A stretch of DNA of 64,000 nt from Gemmatimonadota bacterium (GTDB taxonomy: Bacteria; Gemmatimonadota; Gemmatimonadetes; Gemmatimonadales; Gemmatimonadaceae). This document shows positions 17,037 through 26,155 of this stretch, one piece after another. How positions within the stretch are numbered: the first letter of the stretch is position 1; every line of letters begins with the position of its first letter. Position numbers and translations under genes: made by a program. The notes under the pieces were generated by a model. It was not told the DNA's origin. It saw nothing but the letters and a program-made list of their open reading frames with translations, and searched no databases. The stretch lies in contig JAJPIM010000023.1 in the NCBI GenBank assembly GCA_021324775.1, forward strand, positions 53,176 through 117,175. The letters run 5' to 3'.

Positions 17037-17186
17037 CCGGGCACCATAGGCCGAACTGTCATGAGAAGGTAATGAACAGATTGGCGAACGCTTGGAGTGC
17101 CTATCACCGCGCCATTGCGATCGCACACCGCGCGGGCCGGTGGAGCTGAAACGACATCATTGCAGTTACCGAATTATGGGCCAGCG

Positions 17187-17215
17187 TTGACACTGACATT
17201 GGCCGCCAATACATT
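17187..17215 (+). promoter_or_regulatory. sigma70-type promoter candidate: TTGACA-17 nt-TACATT
   Basis: TTGACA at 17187..17192, a 17-nt spacer, then TACATT at 17210..17215. The GTG of the His-rich ORF lies 7 nt after the -10 hexamer. Confidence 0.5.
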
Positions 17216-17221
17216 CGGGTC

Positions 17222-17311
17222 GTGCTCGCCATCCAGCGCCATCACCATCATGTGCATCACCACGGCCCTTCGGGTCGCGGCGCGACGCGCGTGCATCGGA
17301 TGATCAGCTAG
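17222..17311 (+). CDS. hisL: his operon leader peptide candidate (29 aa, 7 His in 8 consecutive codons)
   Basis: Own reading: GTG CTC GCC ATC CAG CGC CAT CAC CAT CAT GTG CAT CAC CAC GGC ... TAG = (M)LAIQRHHHHVHHHGPSGRGATRVHRMIS*. It lies directly upstream of an intrinsic terminator and hisG, and is too short for the track. Confidence 0.75.
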   Translation: MLAIQRHHHHVHHHGPSGRGATRVHRMIS

Positions 17312-17345
17312 CACACTTCACACTCCGACCGTACCGCAACCGCCC

Positions 17346-17378
17346 CGGCCCGTCTATTCGACGGGCCGTTTTTGTTTT
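17346..17378 (+). terminator. intrinsic terminator / attenuator between the His leader and hisG
   Basis: Perfect 9-bp stem CGGCCCGTC / GACGGGCCG with loop TATTC, followed by TTTTTGTTTT. It ends 31 nt before the hisG ATG. Confidence 0.8.
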
Positions 17379-17409
17379 GCGCCCATACCCCGGCACCCAC
17401 CACACCACC

Positions 17410-18288
17410 ATGCTCCGCGTCGCTCTACCCAATAAAGGCCGTCTCGCCGAAGCCACCCGCGACCTGTTTGCCGATGCCGGCCTCGAGGTCCGCGGCCGCG
17501 GCGAACGCGCTCTCACGGCATCGCTCGGCGGTGAGTTCGAAGCGCTCTTCGTTCGCGCGCAGGATGTCACCGAGTTCGTCGCCGACGGCGTCGCCGATGC
17601 CGGTGTCACCGGGTGGGACCTGGTCGCCGAGTCGGACCGGCCGGTCGATCCACTGCTCGACCTCGAGTTCGGTTACTGCCGGCTCGTCGTCGCGGCACGA
17701 GAGGACAGCGGGATCCACGCCGTCGCCGATCTGAGGCCCGGTCCGGAAGCGCCGCACCGTGTCGCCACGAGCTTCCCCCGCATCACGCGCCGCTTCTTCT
17801 CCGACGCAGGCCGCGCTGTCGATGTCGTCCCGGTCTCGGGGGCCGCCGAGGTCGCGCCACACCTGGGGATCGCCGACATCGTCGTCGACCTGACGTCCAC
17901 CGGCTCGACCCTCAAGGTCAACGGCCTCCGCGAAGTCGCCACGATCCTCGACTCCTCGGCGCGCCTGATCACCGCCACGGGCCGCGACGCCGGCAACCTT
18001 GGCGTCGCCGCGCCGCTGGATGAACTCGTCGCGGCCCTCGCCTCCGTCCTCCGCGCACGGGGACAGCGATACCTCATGGCCAATGTCCCGCGCAACGCGC
18101 TCGATCGGGTCAAACAGATCCTTCCCGGACTGAATGGCCCCACCGTCACCGACATCCTCAACGGCGGCGACCTCGTGGCCGTCCACGCGGTCGTACCCGC
18201 TGCTTCGGTCTATCGCACCATCGCCGCACTCAAGGCCCTGCAGGCCACCGGTGTTCTCGTGACGAGGATCGAGAGGTTGATGCCATGA
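17410..18288 (+). CDS. hisG: ATP phosphoribosyltransferase, long form
   Basis: Track ORF 17377..18288. ATG 17410 gives MLRVALPNKGRL...; DLTSTGSTLKVNGL is present, and there is a C-terminal regulatory domain. Confidence 0.9.
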   Translation: MLRVALPNKGRLAEATRDLFADAGLEVRGRGERALTASLGGEFEALFVRAQDVTEFVADGVADAGVTGWDLVAESDRPVDPLLDLEFGYCRLVVAAREDSGIHAVADLRPGPEAPHRVATSFPRITRRFFSDAGRAVDVVPVSGAAEVAPHLGIADIVVDLTSTGSTLKVNGLREVATILDSSARLITATGRDAGNLGVAAPLDELVAALASVLRARGQRYLMANVPRNALDRVKQILPGLNGPTVTDILNGGDLVAVHAVVPAASVYRTIAALKALQATGVLVTRIERLMP

Positions 18289-23391: not shown

Positions 23392-24026
23392 TGCCGGGCG
23401 CTGGCGTGCTCGATCTCGATAAGCTGGACTTCGAGAAGGGCGATGGCCGCCTGACCGTCGTCACGCAGGACGCCGATACGGGCGCCGTCCTCATGGTGGC
23501 GCACGCGGACCGTGACGCGCTCGAACGCACGATCGCGACTGGCGAGATGTACTACACATCCCGGACTCGCGGGCTCTGGCACAAGGGCGCCACGAGTGGC
23601 AATCGTCAGAGCGTGGTGTCGCTGGCCGCGGACTGCGACGGCGATGCGGTCCTCGCCCGCGTGCGTCCCATGGGCCCGGCCTGCCACTCCGGCCAGACGT
23701 CCTGCTTCGGCGAGCCGGCGCTGGCGCCGGACGCGCTCGCCGTGCTCGACCGCATGATCGCCGGCCGGGCTGCTGATCCATCGGCAGCGGCGGGTGGTTA
23801 CACCCGGACGCTGCTTCGGGATCGCAATCTGAGACTCAAGAAGATTGGTGAAGAGGCTGCCGAGTTTGTGGTGGCGTGCACGGGGACGGATGCGGATCGC
23901 GTCGTGGCCGAAGCCAGCGATCTCGTCTATCACGCATTGGTTGCCATGCATGGGGCAGGCGTCGCGTGGCCAGCCGTCGTCGGTGAGCTGGCCGCGCGCG
24001 GGTCTCGTGGCAAGCCGGCCGAATAA
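23391..24026 (+). CDS. hisIE: bifunctional phosphoribosyl-AMP cyclohydrolase / phosphoribosyl-ATP diphosphatase
   Basis: In-frame ATG 23391 in track ORF 23256..24026: ...VVTQDADTGAVLMVAHADRDAL...YYTSRTRGLWHKGATSGN...CDGDAVL...CHSGQTSCF, then a PRA-PH helical part (LKKIGEEAAEFV). 1-nt overlap with the hisF stop. Confidence 0.85.
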   Translation: MPGAGVLDLDKLDFEKGDGRLTVVTQDADTGAVLMVAHADRDALERTIATGEMYYTSRTRGLWHKGATSGNRQSVVSLAADCDGDAVLARVRPMGPACHSGQTSCFGEPALAPDALAVLDRMIAGRAADPSAAAGGYTRTLLRDRNLRLKKIGEEAAEFVVACTGTDADRVVAEASDLVYHALVAMHGAGVAWPAVVGELAARGSRGKPAE

Positions 24027-24127
24027 GCCCGGCTGACGTCGCGATTCGCCGCTTGCGCGCGTCGTGGACGGCGGATAGCTTCGGCAGTACAACCGATTTC
24101 CACCGTATCCGTGGTCCTTGCCGCGTA

Positions 24128-24156
24128 TTGCAGCCACGTTAAACAAATGCTAAAAA
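24128..24156 (+). promoter_or_regulatory. promoter candidate TTGCAG-17 nt-TAAAAA in an AT-rich island
   Basis: TTGCAG at 24128..24133, a 17-nt spacer, TAAAAA at 24151..24156. It sits in a locally AT-rich stretch (gttaaacaaatgctaaaaag) within the 473-nt hisIE-to-sulfite-reductase intergenic region. Confidence 0.35.
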
Positions 24157-24201
24157 GCGTTCGCCCGCGGCCGCTGTCCGTGGGCGTTCGTGTTACACAC
24201 C

Positions 24202-24405
24202 ATGCCTCTTACCGTTCGCCCCACCTCCCGCTCACGGACCGCCGCGCCACGCCACTGGTGCGGCACCGCCGCGCGTTGCAGCGAGTGCTGCCGCGAGTGT
24301 TGTTGCAGCTGTTGCGGCTGTTGTTGGAGCCACGGATGTGCCGCCCCGCATGGGCGCGGTCGCCAGGCCAGGGTGCGAGCCGATCCTCACGATCGCCGCC
24401 GGTAG
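24202..24405 (+). CDS. Cys-rich upstream ORF (12 Cys within 27 codons); candidate Cys-sensing leader peptide
   Basis: Track ORF 24190..24405 (GTG) with an internal ATG at 24202: ...HWCGTAARCSECCRECCCSCCGCCWSHGC... (Cys codons 24259..24339, several of them TGT). It is followed by a terminator and the sulfite reductase gene. Confidence 0.5.
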   Translation: MPLTVRPTSRSRTAAPRHWCGTAARCSECCRECCCSCCGCCWSHGCAAPHGRGRQARVRADPHDRRR

Positions 24406-24440
24406 CGAGCAGCAAGCTCGTACCCCGAACCCCGACGCCT

Positions 24441-24479
24441 GGCCCGCTCCTCACTCCGAGTAGCGGGCCCTTTCGTTTT
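24441..24479 (+). terminator. intrinsic terminator / attenuator candidate upstream of the sulfite reductase
   Basis: GGCCCGCT(c)CTC-actcc-GAG(t)AGCGGGCC: 8+3 bp with one mismatch and a 5-nt loop, followed by CTTTCGTTTT. It ends 20 nt before ATG 24500. Confidence 0.6.
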
Positions 24480-24499
24480 CACGCCTCTCCTCCGCTCAG

Positions 24500-26155
24500 A
24501 TGCCTGTGTCCTCCACGTCGTCACCCAACCTCGTACCGCCGCTGCCGTCTCCACCCAAGGAGACTGCTGCCCAGCACATCGAACGCGTCAAGCGCGAGCG
24601 CCCATCCTGGTCGATACTCGATGACATCCGGCGCTACGCTCGCGAAGGCTTCGACAGTATCCCTGCGGACGATCTTGCGGTCCGGCTCCGCGCGTGGGGG
24701 CTCTATACGCAGGGCGACGGCGCGGGCGTGCGTGGCGACGCGATCCGGTACTTCATGATGCGCGTCCGCACGCCGAACGGCGTGCTGACATCGGCGATGT
24801 GCCGGACCATAGCGGATCTCGCGGATCGGTATGCCCGTGGCACGCTCGACATCACCAACCGGCAGAACTTTCAGTTGCACTGGCTCCGCATCGAAGACGT
24901 CCCTGCGGTGTGGGATGCTCTCGCAGAGGTCGGGTGGACGAGCCAGGGCGCCTGCGGCGACAACACTCGCACGGTCACCGGCTGCCCGCTCGCCGGCGTG
25001 GACGCCGGCGAGGTGGCCGACGCGTCGCCCCTCGCGGTCGCGATCGATCGCCACCTGAACGGTCACCCGGACTTCGCGAACCTGCCGCGGAAGTTCAAGA
25101 TCTCCGTCACTGGGTGCCGGCACTGGTGCACGTATCCCGAGATCAACGATATCGGCCTGACCGCGATCCGCCGCGGCGAGGAGATCGGATTTTCCCTGCG
25201 CGTCGGAGGTGGCCTCTCCACGCGCCCCCACATGGCGGTCCGCCTCGATGCTTTCGCCCGCTGGGATCAGGCGATCGCGGTCACCGAGGCGGTGGCCGGG
25301 ATCTTCCGCGACTCGGACGTGCTCCGCGTGCACCGTGCCAAGGCGCGCATGAAGTATCTCTTCCTCACGCAGGGCTGGACGGCCGATCGTTTTCTCGCGG
25401 AGGTCAACGACCGCCTCGGTTTCACGCTCGATCCTGGCGTCCCAGAAGACGCGCCAATCGAGCAGTTCCGCGACCACGTCGGTGTCCACCCTCAGCGGCA
25501 GGCGGGGCTCTCCTACGCCGGATTCTCGGTGGCCGCGGGCCGGATCCGCCCGGCGCTTCTTCGGCGGATCGCTGACTGGGCGGAGGAGTTCGGCGACGGC
25601 ACGCTCCGCACCACGGCTGCGCAGAACCTGGTGGTGCTCAATGTGCCCGATGCACACATGGGTGGCCTCGAGCACGCCGTAACGTCGTCAGGCATCGCTC
25701 CTGTCGCCTCACCGTTCCAGCGCGGCATCGTCGCCTGCACGGGATCGGAGTTCTGCAAGCTCGCGCTGGTCGAAACGAAGGCATTCAGCCTGAACCTCAT
25801 CCCCGATCTCGAACGCCGGCTCCCGAACTTCAGCCAGCATCTTCGGATACACGTCACCGGTTGCCCCAACGCGTGCGGCCAGCACTGGATCGCGGATGTC
25901 GGGCTGCAAGGCGTGCAAGTCGACGACGGCGGCCGACAGGTCGATGGCTTCGATCTCTTCGTCGGTGGCGGCTTGGGCCGGGGCGCGGACTTCGCGCATC
26001 GGGCCGGCGTGCGGCTCCCGGCGACACGAGTCGCTGGTGCGCTCGAGACGCTGCTACGCGCCTACCTCGCTACCCGTGAAGAAGGCGAGGTATTCCGCGC
26101 GTGGACCGCCCGAGTGACGGATACGTACCTCAAGGAGCTGCTTGCCGACGCGTAA
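24500..26155 (+). CDS. ferredoxin-dependent sulfite/nitrite reductase (NirA/Sir family, siroheme-4Fe4S)
   Basis: Track ORF of 551 aa. Cys clusters CTGSEFCKLALVETK and HVTGCPNACGQHWIADVGL; duplicated NIR_SIR-type halves; N-terminal WGLYTQGDG. Confidence 0.85.
   Translation: MPVSSTSSPNLVPPLPSPPKETAAQHIERVKRERPSWSILDDIRRYAREGFDSIPADDLAVRLRAWGLYTQGDGAGVRGDAIRYFMMRVRTPNGVLTSAMCRTIADLADRYARGTLDITNRQNFQLHWLRIEDVPAVWDALAEVGWTSQGACGDNTRTVTGCPLAGVDAGEVADASPLAVAIDRHLNGHPDFANLPRKFKISVTGCRHWCTYPEINDIGLTAIRRGEEIGFSLRVGGGLSTRPHMAVRLDAFARWDQAIAVTEAVAGIFRDSDVLRVHRAKARMKYLFLTQGWTADRFLAEVNDRLGFTLDPGVPEDAPIEQFRDHVGVHPQRQAGLSYAGFSVAAGRIRPALLRRIADWAEEFGDGTLRTTAAQNLVVLNVPDAHMGGLEHAVTSSGIAPVASPFQRGIVACTGSEFCKLALVETKAFSLNLIPDLERRLPNFSQHLRIHVTGCPNACGQHWIADVGLQGVQVDDGGRQVDGFDLFVGGGLGRGADFAHRAGVRLPATRVAGALETLLRAYLATREEGEVFRAWTARVTDTYLKELLADA

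Follow-up and report, generated by a model that had tools for sequence, protein, structure and literature searches.

The 64,000-nucleotide stretch of Gemmatimonadota DNA analysed here (contig JAJPIM010000023.1; hereafter the window) exhibits a spacer of 473 nt between the end of hisIE (position 24026) and the ATG of a siroheme-dependent reductase (position 24500). This spacer probably constitutes a composite leader of the reductase gene, with two termination checkpoints in series. The upstream checkpoint would be a SAM-II-type aptamer for S-adenosylmethionine (SAM) followed by a terminator (T1), and the downstream checkpoint a leader open reading frame (ORF) rich in Cys codons followed by a second terminator (T2). 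The RNA structures and their conservation were computed; translation of the ORF, ribosome stalling and termination are predicted from them. The elements of the locus are the following.

24053..24081, forward strand: putative promoter, TTGCGC, 17 nt and TAGCTT, proposed from conservation only.
24101..24160, forward strand: SAM-II (RF00521)-like aptamer (Rfam cmscan, conservation).
24162..24194, forward strand: terminator T1, a hairpin (24162-86) with the stem CGCCCGCGG / CCGUGGGCG, then UUCGUGUU (terminator scanner, folding, conservation).
24202..24405, forward strand: leader ORF of 67 codons, ATG at 24202 (alternative GTG at 24190), TAG at 24403-05, encoding the peptide MPLTVRPTSRSRTAAPRHWCGTAARCSECCRECCCSCCGCCWSHGCAAPHGRGRQARVRADPHDRRR.
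24259..24339, forward strand: Cys-codon tract, 12 Cys in 27 codons (6 TGT, 6 TGC), the last TGT (24337-39) abutting segment 1.
24338..24347, forward strand: segment 1, 5' strand of the predicted anti-antiterminator, beginning at the last Cys codon and pairing with 24352-63.
24352..24368, forward strand: segment 2, 5' strand of the predicted antiterminator (GGGCGCGG..GCCAGGC), inside the 3' third of the leader ORF.
24371..24432, forward strand: branched domain inside the antiterminator, with a hairpin at 24382-94 and a second one (H3) at 24405-21, containing the stop codon of the leader ORF.
24437..24451, forward strand: segment 3, 3' strand of the predicted antiterminator, holding the entire 5' arm of T2; CCCGCUCCU is invariant in 8 relatives.
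24441..24479, forward strand: terminator T2, GGCCCGCU / AGCGGGCC (24441-69) with inner CUC/GAG pairs, then CUUUCGUUUU (folding, conservation).
24500..26155, forward strand: reductase of 551 aa, siroheme/[4Fe-4S] NirA/SirA-type (Pfam NIR_SIR, NIR_SIR_ferr).

The initial annotation of this locus had described the Cys-rich ORF and the terminator behind it, and had proposed a Cys-responsive attenuator. Its values for the spacer length, the ORF coordinates, the number of Cys codons and the quasi-repeats were all correct when the sequence was read again, and so was its placing of the hairpin and U-tract at 24441..24479. The attenuator that it proposed is supported by the conservation, the antiterminator, the ribosome-position modelling and the recurrence in two phyla described below. 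This picture was incomplete, as the SAM-II aptamer, T1, the antiterminator and the anti-antiterminator had been missed; the region then reported starts at 24128, which falls inside the aptamer.

The centre of the leader ORF reads WCGTAARCSECCRECCCSCCGCCWSHGC and is built from the quasi-repeats TGTTGCAGC / TGTTGCGGC / TGTTGGAGC. When all stop-free windows of 27 codons were counted in the six frames of the 64 kb, the runner-up exhibited 7 Cys. With TGY making up 2.8% of all triplets in the window, the probability of finding >=12 Cys in 27 codons is about 3e-12 per position and about 4e-7 for the whole window. Given this expectation and the 7-Cys runner-up, the run is far beyond chance, also for DNA of GC-rich composition. 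Cys accounts for 0.78% of the codons in the 17 probable genes of the window, with 8 TGT against 48 TGC. TGT is thus the minor codon, as had been suspected from the sequence, and this rare codon is enriched in the leader ORF, where it is as frequent as TGC. A Pfam scan of the leader ORF returned no match. The identical reductase is found on a 265-kb metagenomic contig from an uncultured organism, the annotation of which calls no gene in the spacer. The length of the ORF was rejected as evidence, since open frames of similar length occur on both strands of the region.

T2 is separated from the stop codon of the leader ORF by 35 nt and ends 20 nt before the reductase ATG. Its hairpin has a folding energy of -21.1 kcal/mol (z = -4.65), and 0/200 shuffled sequences were as stable. 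Across relatives, 97% of its pairs are kept and the U-rich tail is present in all. T2 escaped the terminator scanner because the loop is larger than the program permits unless the inner pairs are counted; a chance hairpin in the Cys tract was called in its place.

Folding of the region for alternative structures, which had been recommended as a check, revealed a predicted antiterminator that competes with T2. In the window this helix consists of the pairs 24352-54/24449-51, 24356-59/24444-47 and 24362-68/24437-43. In folds restricted to RNA that precedes segment 4 (the 3' arm of T2), the antiterminator is the minimum free energy (MFE) structure in 8/8 relatives, and the RNAalifold consensus gives the same helix. 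Its pairing over the relatives amounts to 88.7%, compared with 32-51% for slid partners. The duplex has an energy of -25.7 kcal/mol compared with -19.1 +/- 2.5 for shuffles, and equally good duplexes were found in 10/500 shuffles for the window and 1/500 for the related locus L082. In the alternative state, the anti-antiterminator together with T2 is 91.8% paired across relatives, against 37-50% with slid partners. The local hairpin between segments 1 and 2 (-15.4 kcal/mol) is 86% paired over the 8 relatives and exhibits 2 compensatory pairs. A further compensatory change is found in H3, where GCGAG/CUCGC is replaced by GCGAC/GUCGC in L041, L082 and L083. Another helix, 24416-20/24457-61, was considered as an antiterminator of T2 and rejected as too weak (5 bp).

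The position of the Cys codons relative to these segments was analysed with a ribosome scan. RNA as far as 13 nt beyond the A-site was masked, and for transcripts ending before segment 4 we calculated how probably the 5' arm of T2 is engaged in a long-range helix. With the A-site on any Cys codon, this sequestration probability is 0.5-1.0 in 7/7 relatives with an intact ORF. Within three codons past the last Cys codon it drops to 0.1-0.3 or less in 6/7 relatives. In the window it is 0.88 at 24337 and 0.11 at 24346. At the stop codon of the relatives it is ~0. According to this model, a ribosome stalled anywhere in the Cys tract would not disturb the antiterminator, and the last Cys codon would mark the limit of this permissive zone.

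Searches of genome and metagenome collections placed the locus in Gemmatimonadales, where its close relatives were collected. Ranked by the identity of the reductase, they are L002 and L003 (91%), L041, L082 and L083 (88-89%), L084 (85%), L045 (83%), L085 (82%), L005 (71%) and L011 (66%); about 150 additional reductase loci were taken from Gemmatimonadota, Acidobacteriota and others. The check for conservation proposed in the initial annotation gave a positive answer. An aligned ATG and an aligned TAG or TAA are in frame in 7/8 relatives, with ORFs of 204, 192, 171, 198, 192, 153 and 153 nt (50-67 aa) bearing 6 to 12 Cys codons at the same place. The exception is L041 (2184..2382), which differs from the nearly identical L082 (687..884) by one extra C (GCAGCCTGTTGT versus GCAGCTGTTGT). 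As L041 comes from a long-read metagenome-assembled genome (MAG), this frame break is probably an assembly indel and not a true loss. Codon positions 1, 2 and 3 take up substitutions in equal measure, and this holds for the N-terminal part, the Cys tract and the C-terminal part alike. The absence of a codon-position bias indicates that the peptide sequence itself is not under selection. The C-terminal stretch 'RVRADPHDRRR', conserved among the close relatives, coincides with conserved RNA helices. That the frame and the Cys codons are kept and the amino acid sequence is not argues for a leader peptide, of which this pattern is expected.

The tract between 24283 and 24330 consists of quasi-repeats of the form TGTTGYNGC and folds into its own hairpin. 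The length of the Cys tract is different in every relative and, among intact copies, the differences are always multiples of 3. This variation and the quasi-repeat build suggest that the number of Cys codons changes by replication slippage.

The 5' third of the spacer carries the SAM-II-like aptamer. At gathering thresholds, Rfam gave zero matches over the whole window, and SAM-II surfaced only in a permissive search, as a full-length match at 24101..24174 (30.5 bits, E = 2e-5 to 7e-5). Between 23900 and 24700, no other family was found at E <= 10, including amino-acid leader models such as His_leader and Trp_leader. The orthologous copy in L005 (41.6 bits) and those in L011 (40.7 bits) and L019 (37.8 bits) all score over the threshold. 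The SAM-II family is thus present in the lineage, and from its sequence the window copy is a divergent member. Helix P1 is formed by 24110-15 and 24133-38, enclosing the loop strand GCCGCG (24120-25), and the conserved 3' strand GCUAAAAAGCG is at 24149-59. The aptamer core UUGCAGCCACGUUAAACAAAUGCUAAAAAGC is present; the core UUGCAGCCACGUUAAACAA.UGCUAAAAAGC and P1 are nearly invariant in the clade of the window. No other block of the leader is as conserved in this clade as the aptamer, which has 10/55 variable columns against 24/45 in the upstream flank. A candidate P2b/P2a pseudoknot can be drawn for the window aptamer, whose clade has an altered L1, and the GC(G/A) right after the A-run could form a short canonical P2a.

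T1 directly follows the aptamer. Its hairpin folds with -17.5 kcal/mol (z = -2.4), and the hairpin and the U-rich tail are kept in all aptamer-bearing relatives. The loop strand of the aptamer (24120-25) has a perfect 6-nt complement, CGCGGC, at 24166-71 in the 5' arm of T1. This complementarity covaries: GCCGCG/CGCGGC in the window corresponds to GCUGCC/GGCAGC in L011 and to GCCGCC/GGCGGC in L019. We propose from this pattern that the helix between the loop and the T1 arm is the switching helix. A different pairing, CCACG/CGUGG between the 3' strand of P1 and the 3' arm of T1, was examined as the antiterminator of this module and rejected, being kept neither in L005 nor in L082. Upstream of the aptamer, the putative promoter block CGCTTGCG..N..GATAGCTTCGA is kept in the alignment of 7/7 aptamer-carrying relatives. 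The spacing of 17 nt is also found in L005, L011 and L019 (TTGCTC/TTGACA-17-TAGCTT/TAGCGT/TAACGT). Transcription would start near 24088-90, about 20 nt upstream of P1. This agrees with the layout described for SAM-II elements, where the promoter is located a few nt before P1 and the terminator right after the pseudoknot, an arrangement that has been read as an OFF switch (PMC1273637; PMC9373788).

From these elements we propose the following mechanism. A transcript starting near 24088 would first expose the SAM-II-type aptamer, directly before T1. Without SAM, T1 would be blocked by the loop strand 24120-25, paired to positions 24166-71 of the 5' terminator arm. With SAM, the loop strand would be held in the pseudoknot with 24149-59, T1 would form and transcription would stop; the direction of this switch is a presumption. 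Transcripts that pass T1 would carry the 67-codon leader ORF. When charged Cys-tRNA is plentiful, the ribosome would cross the 12 Cys codons onto segment 2 and end at the stop codon inside the antiterminator domain. Segment 2 would then be covered or re-paired with segment 1, T2 would form and the reductase would remain untranscribed. When charged Cys-tRNA is scarce, the ribosome would stall within 24259-24339, the free segment 2 would capture the emerging 5' arm of T2 and the polymerase would read through. By this logic, expression of the reductase would require low levels of both SAM and charged tRNA-Cys. The downstream module exhibits the features of a leader attenuator, namely an ORF with codons for the end product, an intrinsic terminator and, by computation only, a mutually exclusive, ribosome-dependent antiterminator.

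Several observations weigh against this two-checkpoint leader, and four other explanations have to be considered. In MFE folds of the full-length leader T2 always wins and no switch is visible, so that the antiterminator argument depends on the order of co-transcriptional folding; the case for the antiterminator rests on its conservation, its compatibility with the other structures and the order of transcription. The covariation statistics for the antiterminator, the anti-antiterminator and T2 are not significant among the 8 relatives, because these are too similar. In the window and in L045 the antiterminator contains a mismatch (C24355 opposite U24448) and is a weaker helix. A ribosome at the stop codon (footprint ~24390-24418) does not cover segment 2, and termination in Cys-replete cells would therefore need the hairpin between segments 1 and 2, steric hindrance or trailing ribosomes. 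No Shine-Dalgarno sequence precedes the leader ORF; its absence is tempered by the finding of a Shine-Dalgarno-like motif (GGAG, GAGG or AGGA within 20 nt of the first start codon) in just 4 of the 17 probable genes, defined as long ORFs with a high GC content at third codon positions. The Cys-rich ORF might sense cysteine with an output other than termination at T2, either translation initiation as in mycobacteria or Rho. The only experimentally dissected poly-Cys small ORF (sORF), Ms5788A, acts on translation (10.1101/834739), mycobacterial cys leaders are without terminators (PMC1262725), and the U-run of T2 begins 6 nt past the stem in L084 and L045, which would weaken intrinsic termination. 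We nevertheless regard this as quite unlikely: T2 is a strong and conserved hairpin whose U-rich tail ends 20 nt short of the start codon, the reductase ATG is preceded by no Shine-Dalgarno sequence that could be sequestered, the helix that competes with T2 is conserved and directed at the 5' arm of the terminator rather than at the start region, and canonical terminators follow the Cys sORFs in L011 and in the Acidobacteriota family described below. The ORF might instead encode a small Cys-rich peptide with a function of its own (for example in metal binding, redox reactions or sulfur transfer), co-expressed with the reductase, the hairpins being ordinary mRNA structure. This would better fit an ORF that is long for a leader and whose C-terminus is conserved in close relatives. 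The initial annotation had kept a peptide of this kind as its alternative, which the even distribution of substitutions over codon positions in all three parts of the ORF now makes very improbable. Moreover, the conserved C-terminus coincides with the antiterminator and its enclosed hairpins, the N-terminal part is unconserved, the number and spacing of the Cys residues and the length of the peptide vary, no Pfam family is matched, and in other lineages the position is taken by Cys-rich sORFs of unrelated sequence. Least probable of all appears to us an untranslated ORF, whose Cys codons would be the by-product of a GC-rich hairpin of UGC/GCA-type repeats, with regulation left to SAM-II and RNA structure. 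In its favour, this DNA has a GC content of 66% and the region contains open frames of 50-110 codons on both strands, in several frames; the Cys tract forms a hairpin by itself, and no gene is called there. Against this, the frame, the ATG and the stop survive at least 4 independent length changes, with the single extra base of the long-read L041 as the sole exception; the last Cys codon lies at the edge of the antiterminator 'safe zone' in 6/7 relatives; Cys-dense sORFs are strand-specific in the census given below; and L045 and many other loci carry the sORF without any riboswitch.

The upstream module raises doubts of its own. A scan for the sigma-70 consensus called no promoter, and the putative promoter is weak by consensus. 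The window aptamer scores under the gathering score of RF00521 (30.5 versus 36 bits), and the L1 strand of its clade reads UCCUU, whereas GAUUU is found in the consensus and in L005, L011 and L019; for these two reasons, the aptamers of this clade cannot be relied on to bind SAM. An ON switch would also be compatible with the geometry of the loop/T1-arm helix. In such a switch, CGCGGC (24166-71) would be drawn into an extended P2a when SAM is bound, and T1 would not form; or else the aptamer has decayed to a form that no longer binds SAM, and T1 is a constitutive partial terminator. An aptamer helix strand that directly overlaps the 5' arm of a terminator is a known layout of ON switches, and adenine riboswitches are ON switches of this type. 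The absence of the expected triplex-forming GAUUU and the low score point the same way, as do the MFE folds, which exhibit P1 and T1 and no obvious antiterminator. SAM-II elements with terminators have, however, been interpreted as OFF switches (PMC1273637, PMC9373788), the GC(G/A) after the A-run can supply a short canonical P2a, and such near invariance within the clade would hardly be expected of a decayed aptamer. In L019 a probable metX gene follows the same layout, and there an ON response to SAM would make no physiological sense. We consider an ON switch or a decayed element unlikely and, on account of the L019 layout, prefer the OFF switch, between which and an ON switch the sequence by itself does not decide.

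The two modules of the proposed leader are separable in relatives, as indicated by the following loci.

L005: SAM-II and T1, without the Cys sORF.
L045: Cys sORF and T2, without the riboswitch; the start codon is near a possible promoter.
L085: neither module.
L011, 560..1080: the full tandem in a different sequence, followed by cysG and the reductase.
L019, 5025..5364: SAM-II (37.8 bits) and T1, a Met-rich sORF and a strong terminator, followed by an alpha/beta-hydrolase gene.

In L011 the series consists of a TTGACA-17-TAGCGT promoter, the SAM-II aptamer, T1 (668-690), a Cys-rich sORF (739-861, MHRSESCHKHRHTNCARTCVCTCRGTCCRRTARGPIGVPL) and a terminator (898-923) located 37 nt past the stop. 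The sORF of L019 (MISMRRMQMRMSMAAASLARGTDGRRRMRT) exhibits 7 Met in 30 residues, and the alpha/beta-hydrolase gene is probably metX. The tandem of a SAM riboswitch and a Met leader-peptide attenuator appears to be undescribed so far. Judged by these sequences, the succession of a riboswitch and an amino-acid leader would be a recurring design in the family.

Poly-Cys leaders are not restricted to these loci. When ATG-started sORFs with >=5 Cys within 12 residues were counted upstream of the reductase, they were found on the gene strand in 46/158 loci and on the opposite strand in 1/158. A poly-Cys sORF followed by a terminator upstream of orthologous reductases recurs in two phyla. In the Acidobacteriota-type family, poly-Cys ORFs of ~30 aa (typical peptide MMTSCQMMCCCCARKAACRMTSISGQGSFRT) are located ~100-220 nt upstream of the reductase (L046, L053, L055, L056, L059, L063-L068, L070, L071, L073, L074, L077-L081, L143, L145-L151, L153, L154, L157, L158 and L160). 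Their promoter is TTGACA-17-TATTCT with the ATG 8-9 nt past the -10 element, so that the mRNA is near-leaderless, and a canonical terminator is found ~25 nt past the stop. A conserved CUCUGGCC in the sORF is complementary to GCCAGAG in the terminator arm, and the conserved tail of the peptide, 'ISGQGSFRT', coincides with this complement. These Acidobacteriota leaders exhibit no Rfam match at E <= 0.5. From their sequences, they and the riboswitch-less L045 may be leaderless.

Other, unrelated families of Cys-rich sORFs were observed in Gemmatimonadaceae, often far upstream: L013 (788-940), L015 (1564-1872), L017 (2043-2216), L019 (791-985), L023 (2129-2392), L037 (1187-1360), L038 (1592-1741), L044 (2283-2396), L112/L116/L117 (~470-651) and L140 (232-393). 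They probably precede operons in which the reductase is a later gene. Rfam scans of L013 and L019 found no SAM-II beside their Cys-rich sORFs.

Taking these loci together, we lean towards a modular series of SAM-II and amino-acid attenuators throughout Gemmatimonadota, operating as NOR gates for SAM and Cys-tRNA at the sulfite reductase (the window and L011) and for SAM and Met-tRNA at metX (L019). On this view, to which we give slightly better than even chances, Cys and Met leader-peptide attenuators of the classical, terminator-based type would here be described for the first time, and poly-Cys leaders would be a widespread means of controlling sulfite reduction across Gemmatimonadota, Acidobacteriota and Actinobacteria.

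The window also contains a leader of a more familiar kind, in the following place.

17222-17311 (region 17170..17410): His leader ORF VLAIQRHHHHVHHHGPSGRGATRVHRMIS, GTG at 17222, ahead of the hisG ATG at 17410.

Its promoter (TTGACA-17-TACATT) ends 6 nt before the GTG, and its mRNA is possibly leaderless. The terminator at ~17346-17379 is formed by CCGGCCCGUC..GACGGGCCG followed by UUUUUGUUUUG (-19.4 kcal/mol, z = -3.5). The Rfam His_leader model gave nothing at gathering score for this leader. A classical His leader before hisG indicates that the organism uses ribosome-mediated attenuation. In several leaders the start codon directly follows the -10 element. Initiation that is independent of a Shine-Dalgarno sequence, or leaderless, may be common in the source organism.

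Compared with the classical trp, his, leu, thr and phe leaders of Proteobacteria and the trp leaders of Actinobacteria, the window leader shares the ORF with codons for the end product, the 1:2/2:3/3:4 alternatives and the terminator before the structural gene. It differs in sensing cysteine, in its length of 67 codons, 12 of them regulatory and distributed over 81 nt, and in the ~22 codons past the last regulatory codon, which encode the 5' strand of the antiterminator and the branched domain containing the stop. It also matches no Rfam leader family and is preceded by a riboswitch with its own terminator.

Poly-Cys sORFs upstream of Cys-assimilation genes in mycobacteria had been mentioned in the initial annotation. 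This statement was correct: the mycobacterial polycysteine sORFs (Ms5788A and others) are leaderless and translational in action, as shown by experiment (Canestrari et al., bioRxiv 10.1101/834739), which makes them analogues and not members of the same family. For actinobacterial cys operons, too, upstream Cys leader peptides have been predicted, without terminators (Seliverstov et al. 2005, PMC1262725). The window leader resembles these in its Cys runs, in the unannotated sORF before cysteine/sulfur genes and in the proposed stalling when Cys-tRNA is scarce. In contrast, the mycobacterial sORFs are short and leaderless with a C-terminal Cys tract, the characterised one unmasks a Shine-Dalgarno sequence, and no terminators are found. 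The window leader belongs to the phylum Gemmatimonadota, exhibits no sequence similarity to them, and has a terminator, an antiterminator and no Shine-Dalgarno sequence; its ATG (24202) comes after ~110 nt of conserved, structured 5' leader that includes the aptamer and T1. Being neither leaderless nor of the Shine-Dalgarno-masking type, it does not belong to the mycobacterial family. The uORFC-8-2 motif upstream of cysS in Rhodobacterales is another predicted ribosome-mediated attenuator (Brewer et al. 2021, PMC8632094). Like the window leader, it exhibits Cys codons and a terminator with a U-run; unlike it, it has two tandem Cys codons, a tRNA synthetase as target, an unrelated sequence and structure, and no riboswitch. 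Our literature search returned no reports of Cys leaders beyond those of Actinobacteria and of cysS in Rhodobacterales.

SAM-II is well known in Alphaproteobacteria. The window element agrees with the described SAM-II (the metA element, RF00521; Corbino et al. 2005, PMC1273637) in P1, the loop, the 3' strand ..CCACGUUAAACAA.UGCUAAAAAGC, the layout of promoter and terminator, and the association with Met, SAM and sulfur genes. It differs in its target, a sulfite reductase, in its phylum, in the altered L1 and the sub-threshold score, and in the leader-peptide attenuator downstream. In addition, the full complement of its P2a strand lies within the terminator arm, 8-9 nt further 3'. A search of the literature yielded neither a paper that connects SAM-II with Gemmatimonadota nor an account of a SAM riboswitch placed in series with an attenuator of the amino-acid leader type. 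In Salmonella mgtA, a Mg2+ riboswitch is combined with the proline-codon ORF mgtL, the ORF being within the expression platform and the output Rho-dependent. Tandem attenuators are also known from mgtCBR, whose leader responds to two signals (PMC3641672). These leaders and tandem riboswitches resemble the window leader in the integration of two signals by one mRNA leader, by means of an RNA sensor, of ribosomes stalled on a short ORF, or of both. Compared with mgtA, the window has two complete modules in series, which have intrinsic terminators of their own and are separable in relatives. The pair of signals proposed for the window, SAM and Cys-tRNA, is new.

The gene following the leader probably encodes a ferredoxin-dependent assimilatory sulfite reductase, as judged from its sequence. 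The closest solved structure is that of Mycobacterium tuberculosis NirA (1zj8), which is a sulfite reductase. In relatives, the neighbour of the reductase gene is cysG or an upstream ORF that resembles ATP sulfurylase, as judged by eye from its translation. NCBIfam does not separate nitrite from sulfite reductases for this protein; we accept the sulfite reductase label because of its relationship to NirA and because of these neighbours.

Cysteine has long been missing among the amino acids sensed by attenuators, the sole dissected case being mycobacterial and translational. If our reading is true, a terminator-based Cys attenuator in another phylum shows the generality of this kind of control and offers a compact model of the 1:2, 2:3 and 3:4 alternatives. 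The two-input gate would join a metabolite-sensing RNA to a sensor of tRNA charging, linking the Cys branch and the Met/SAM branch at the committed step of sulfite reduction. The poly-Cys leaders, numerous and independent of one another (46/158), would help to tell sulfite from nitrite reductases in the ambiguous NirA family, and they would extend the regulatory annotation of two poorly studied soil phyla.

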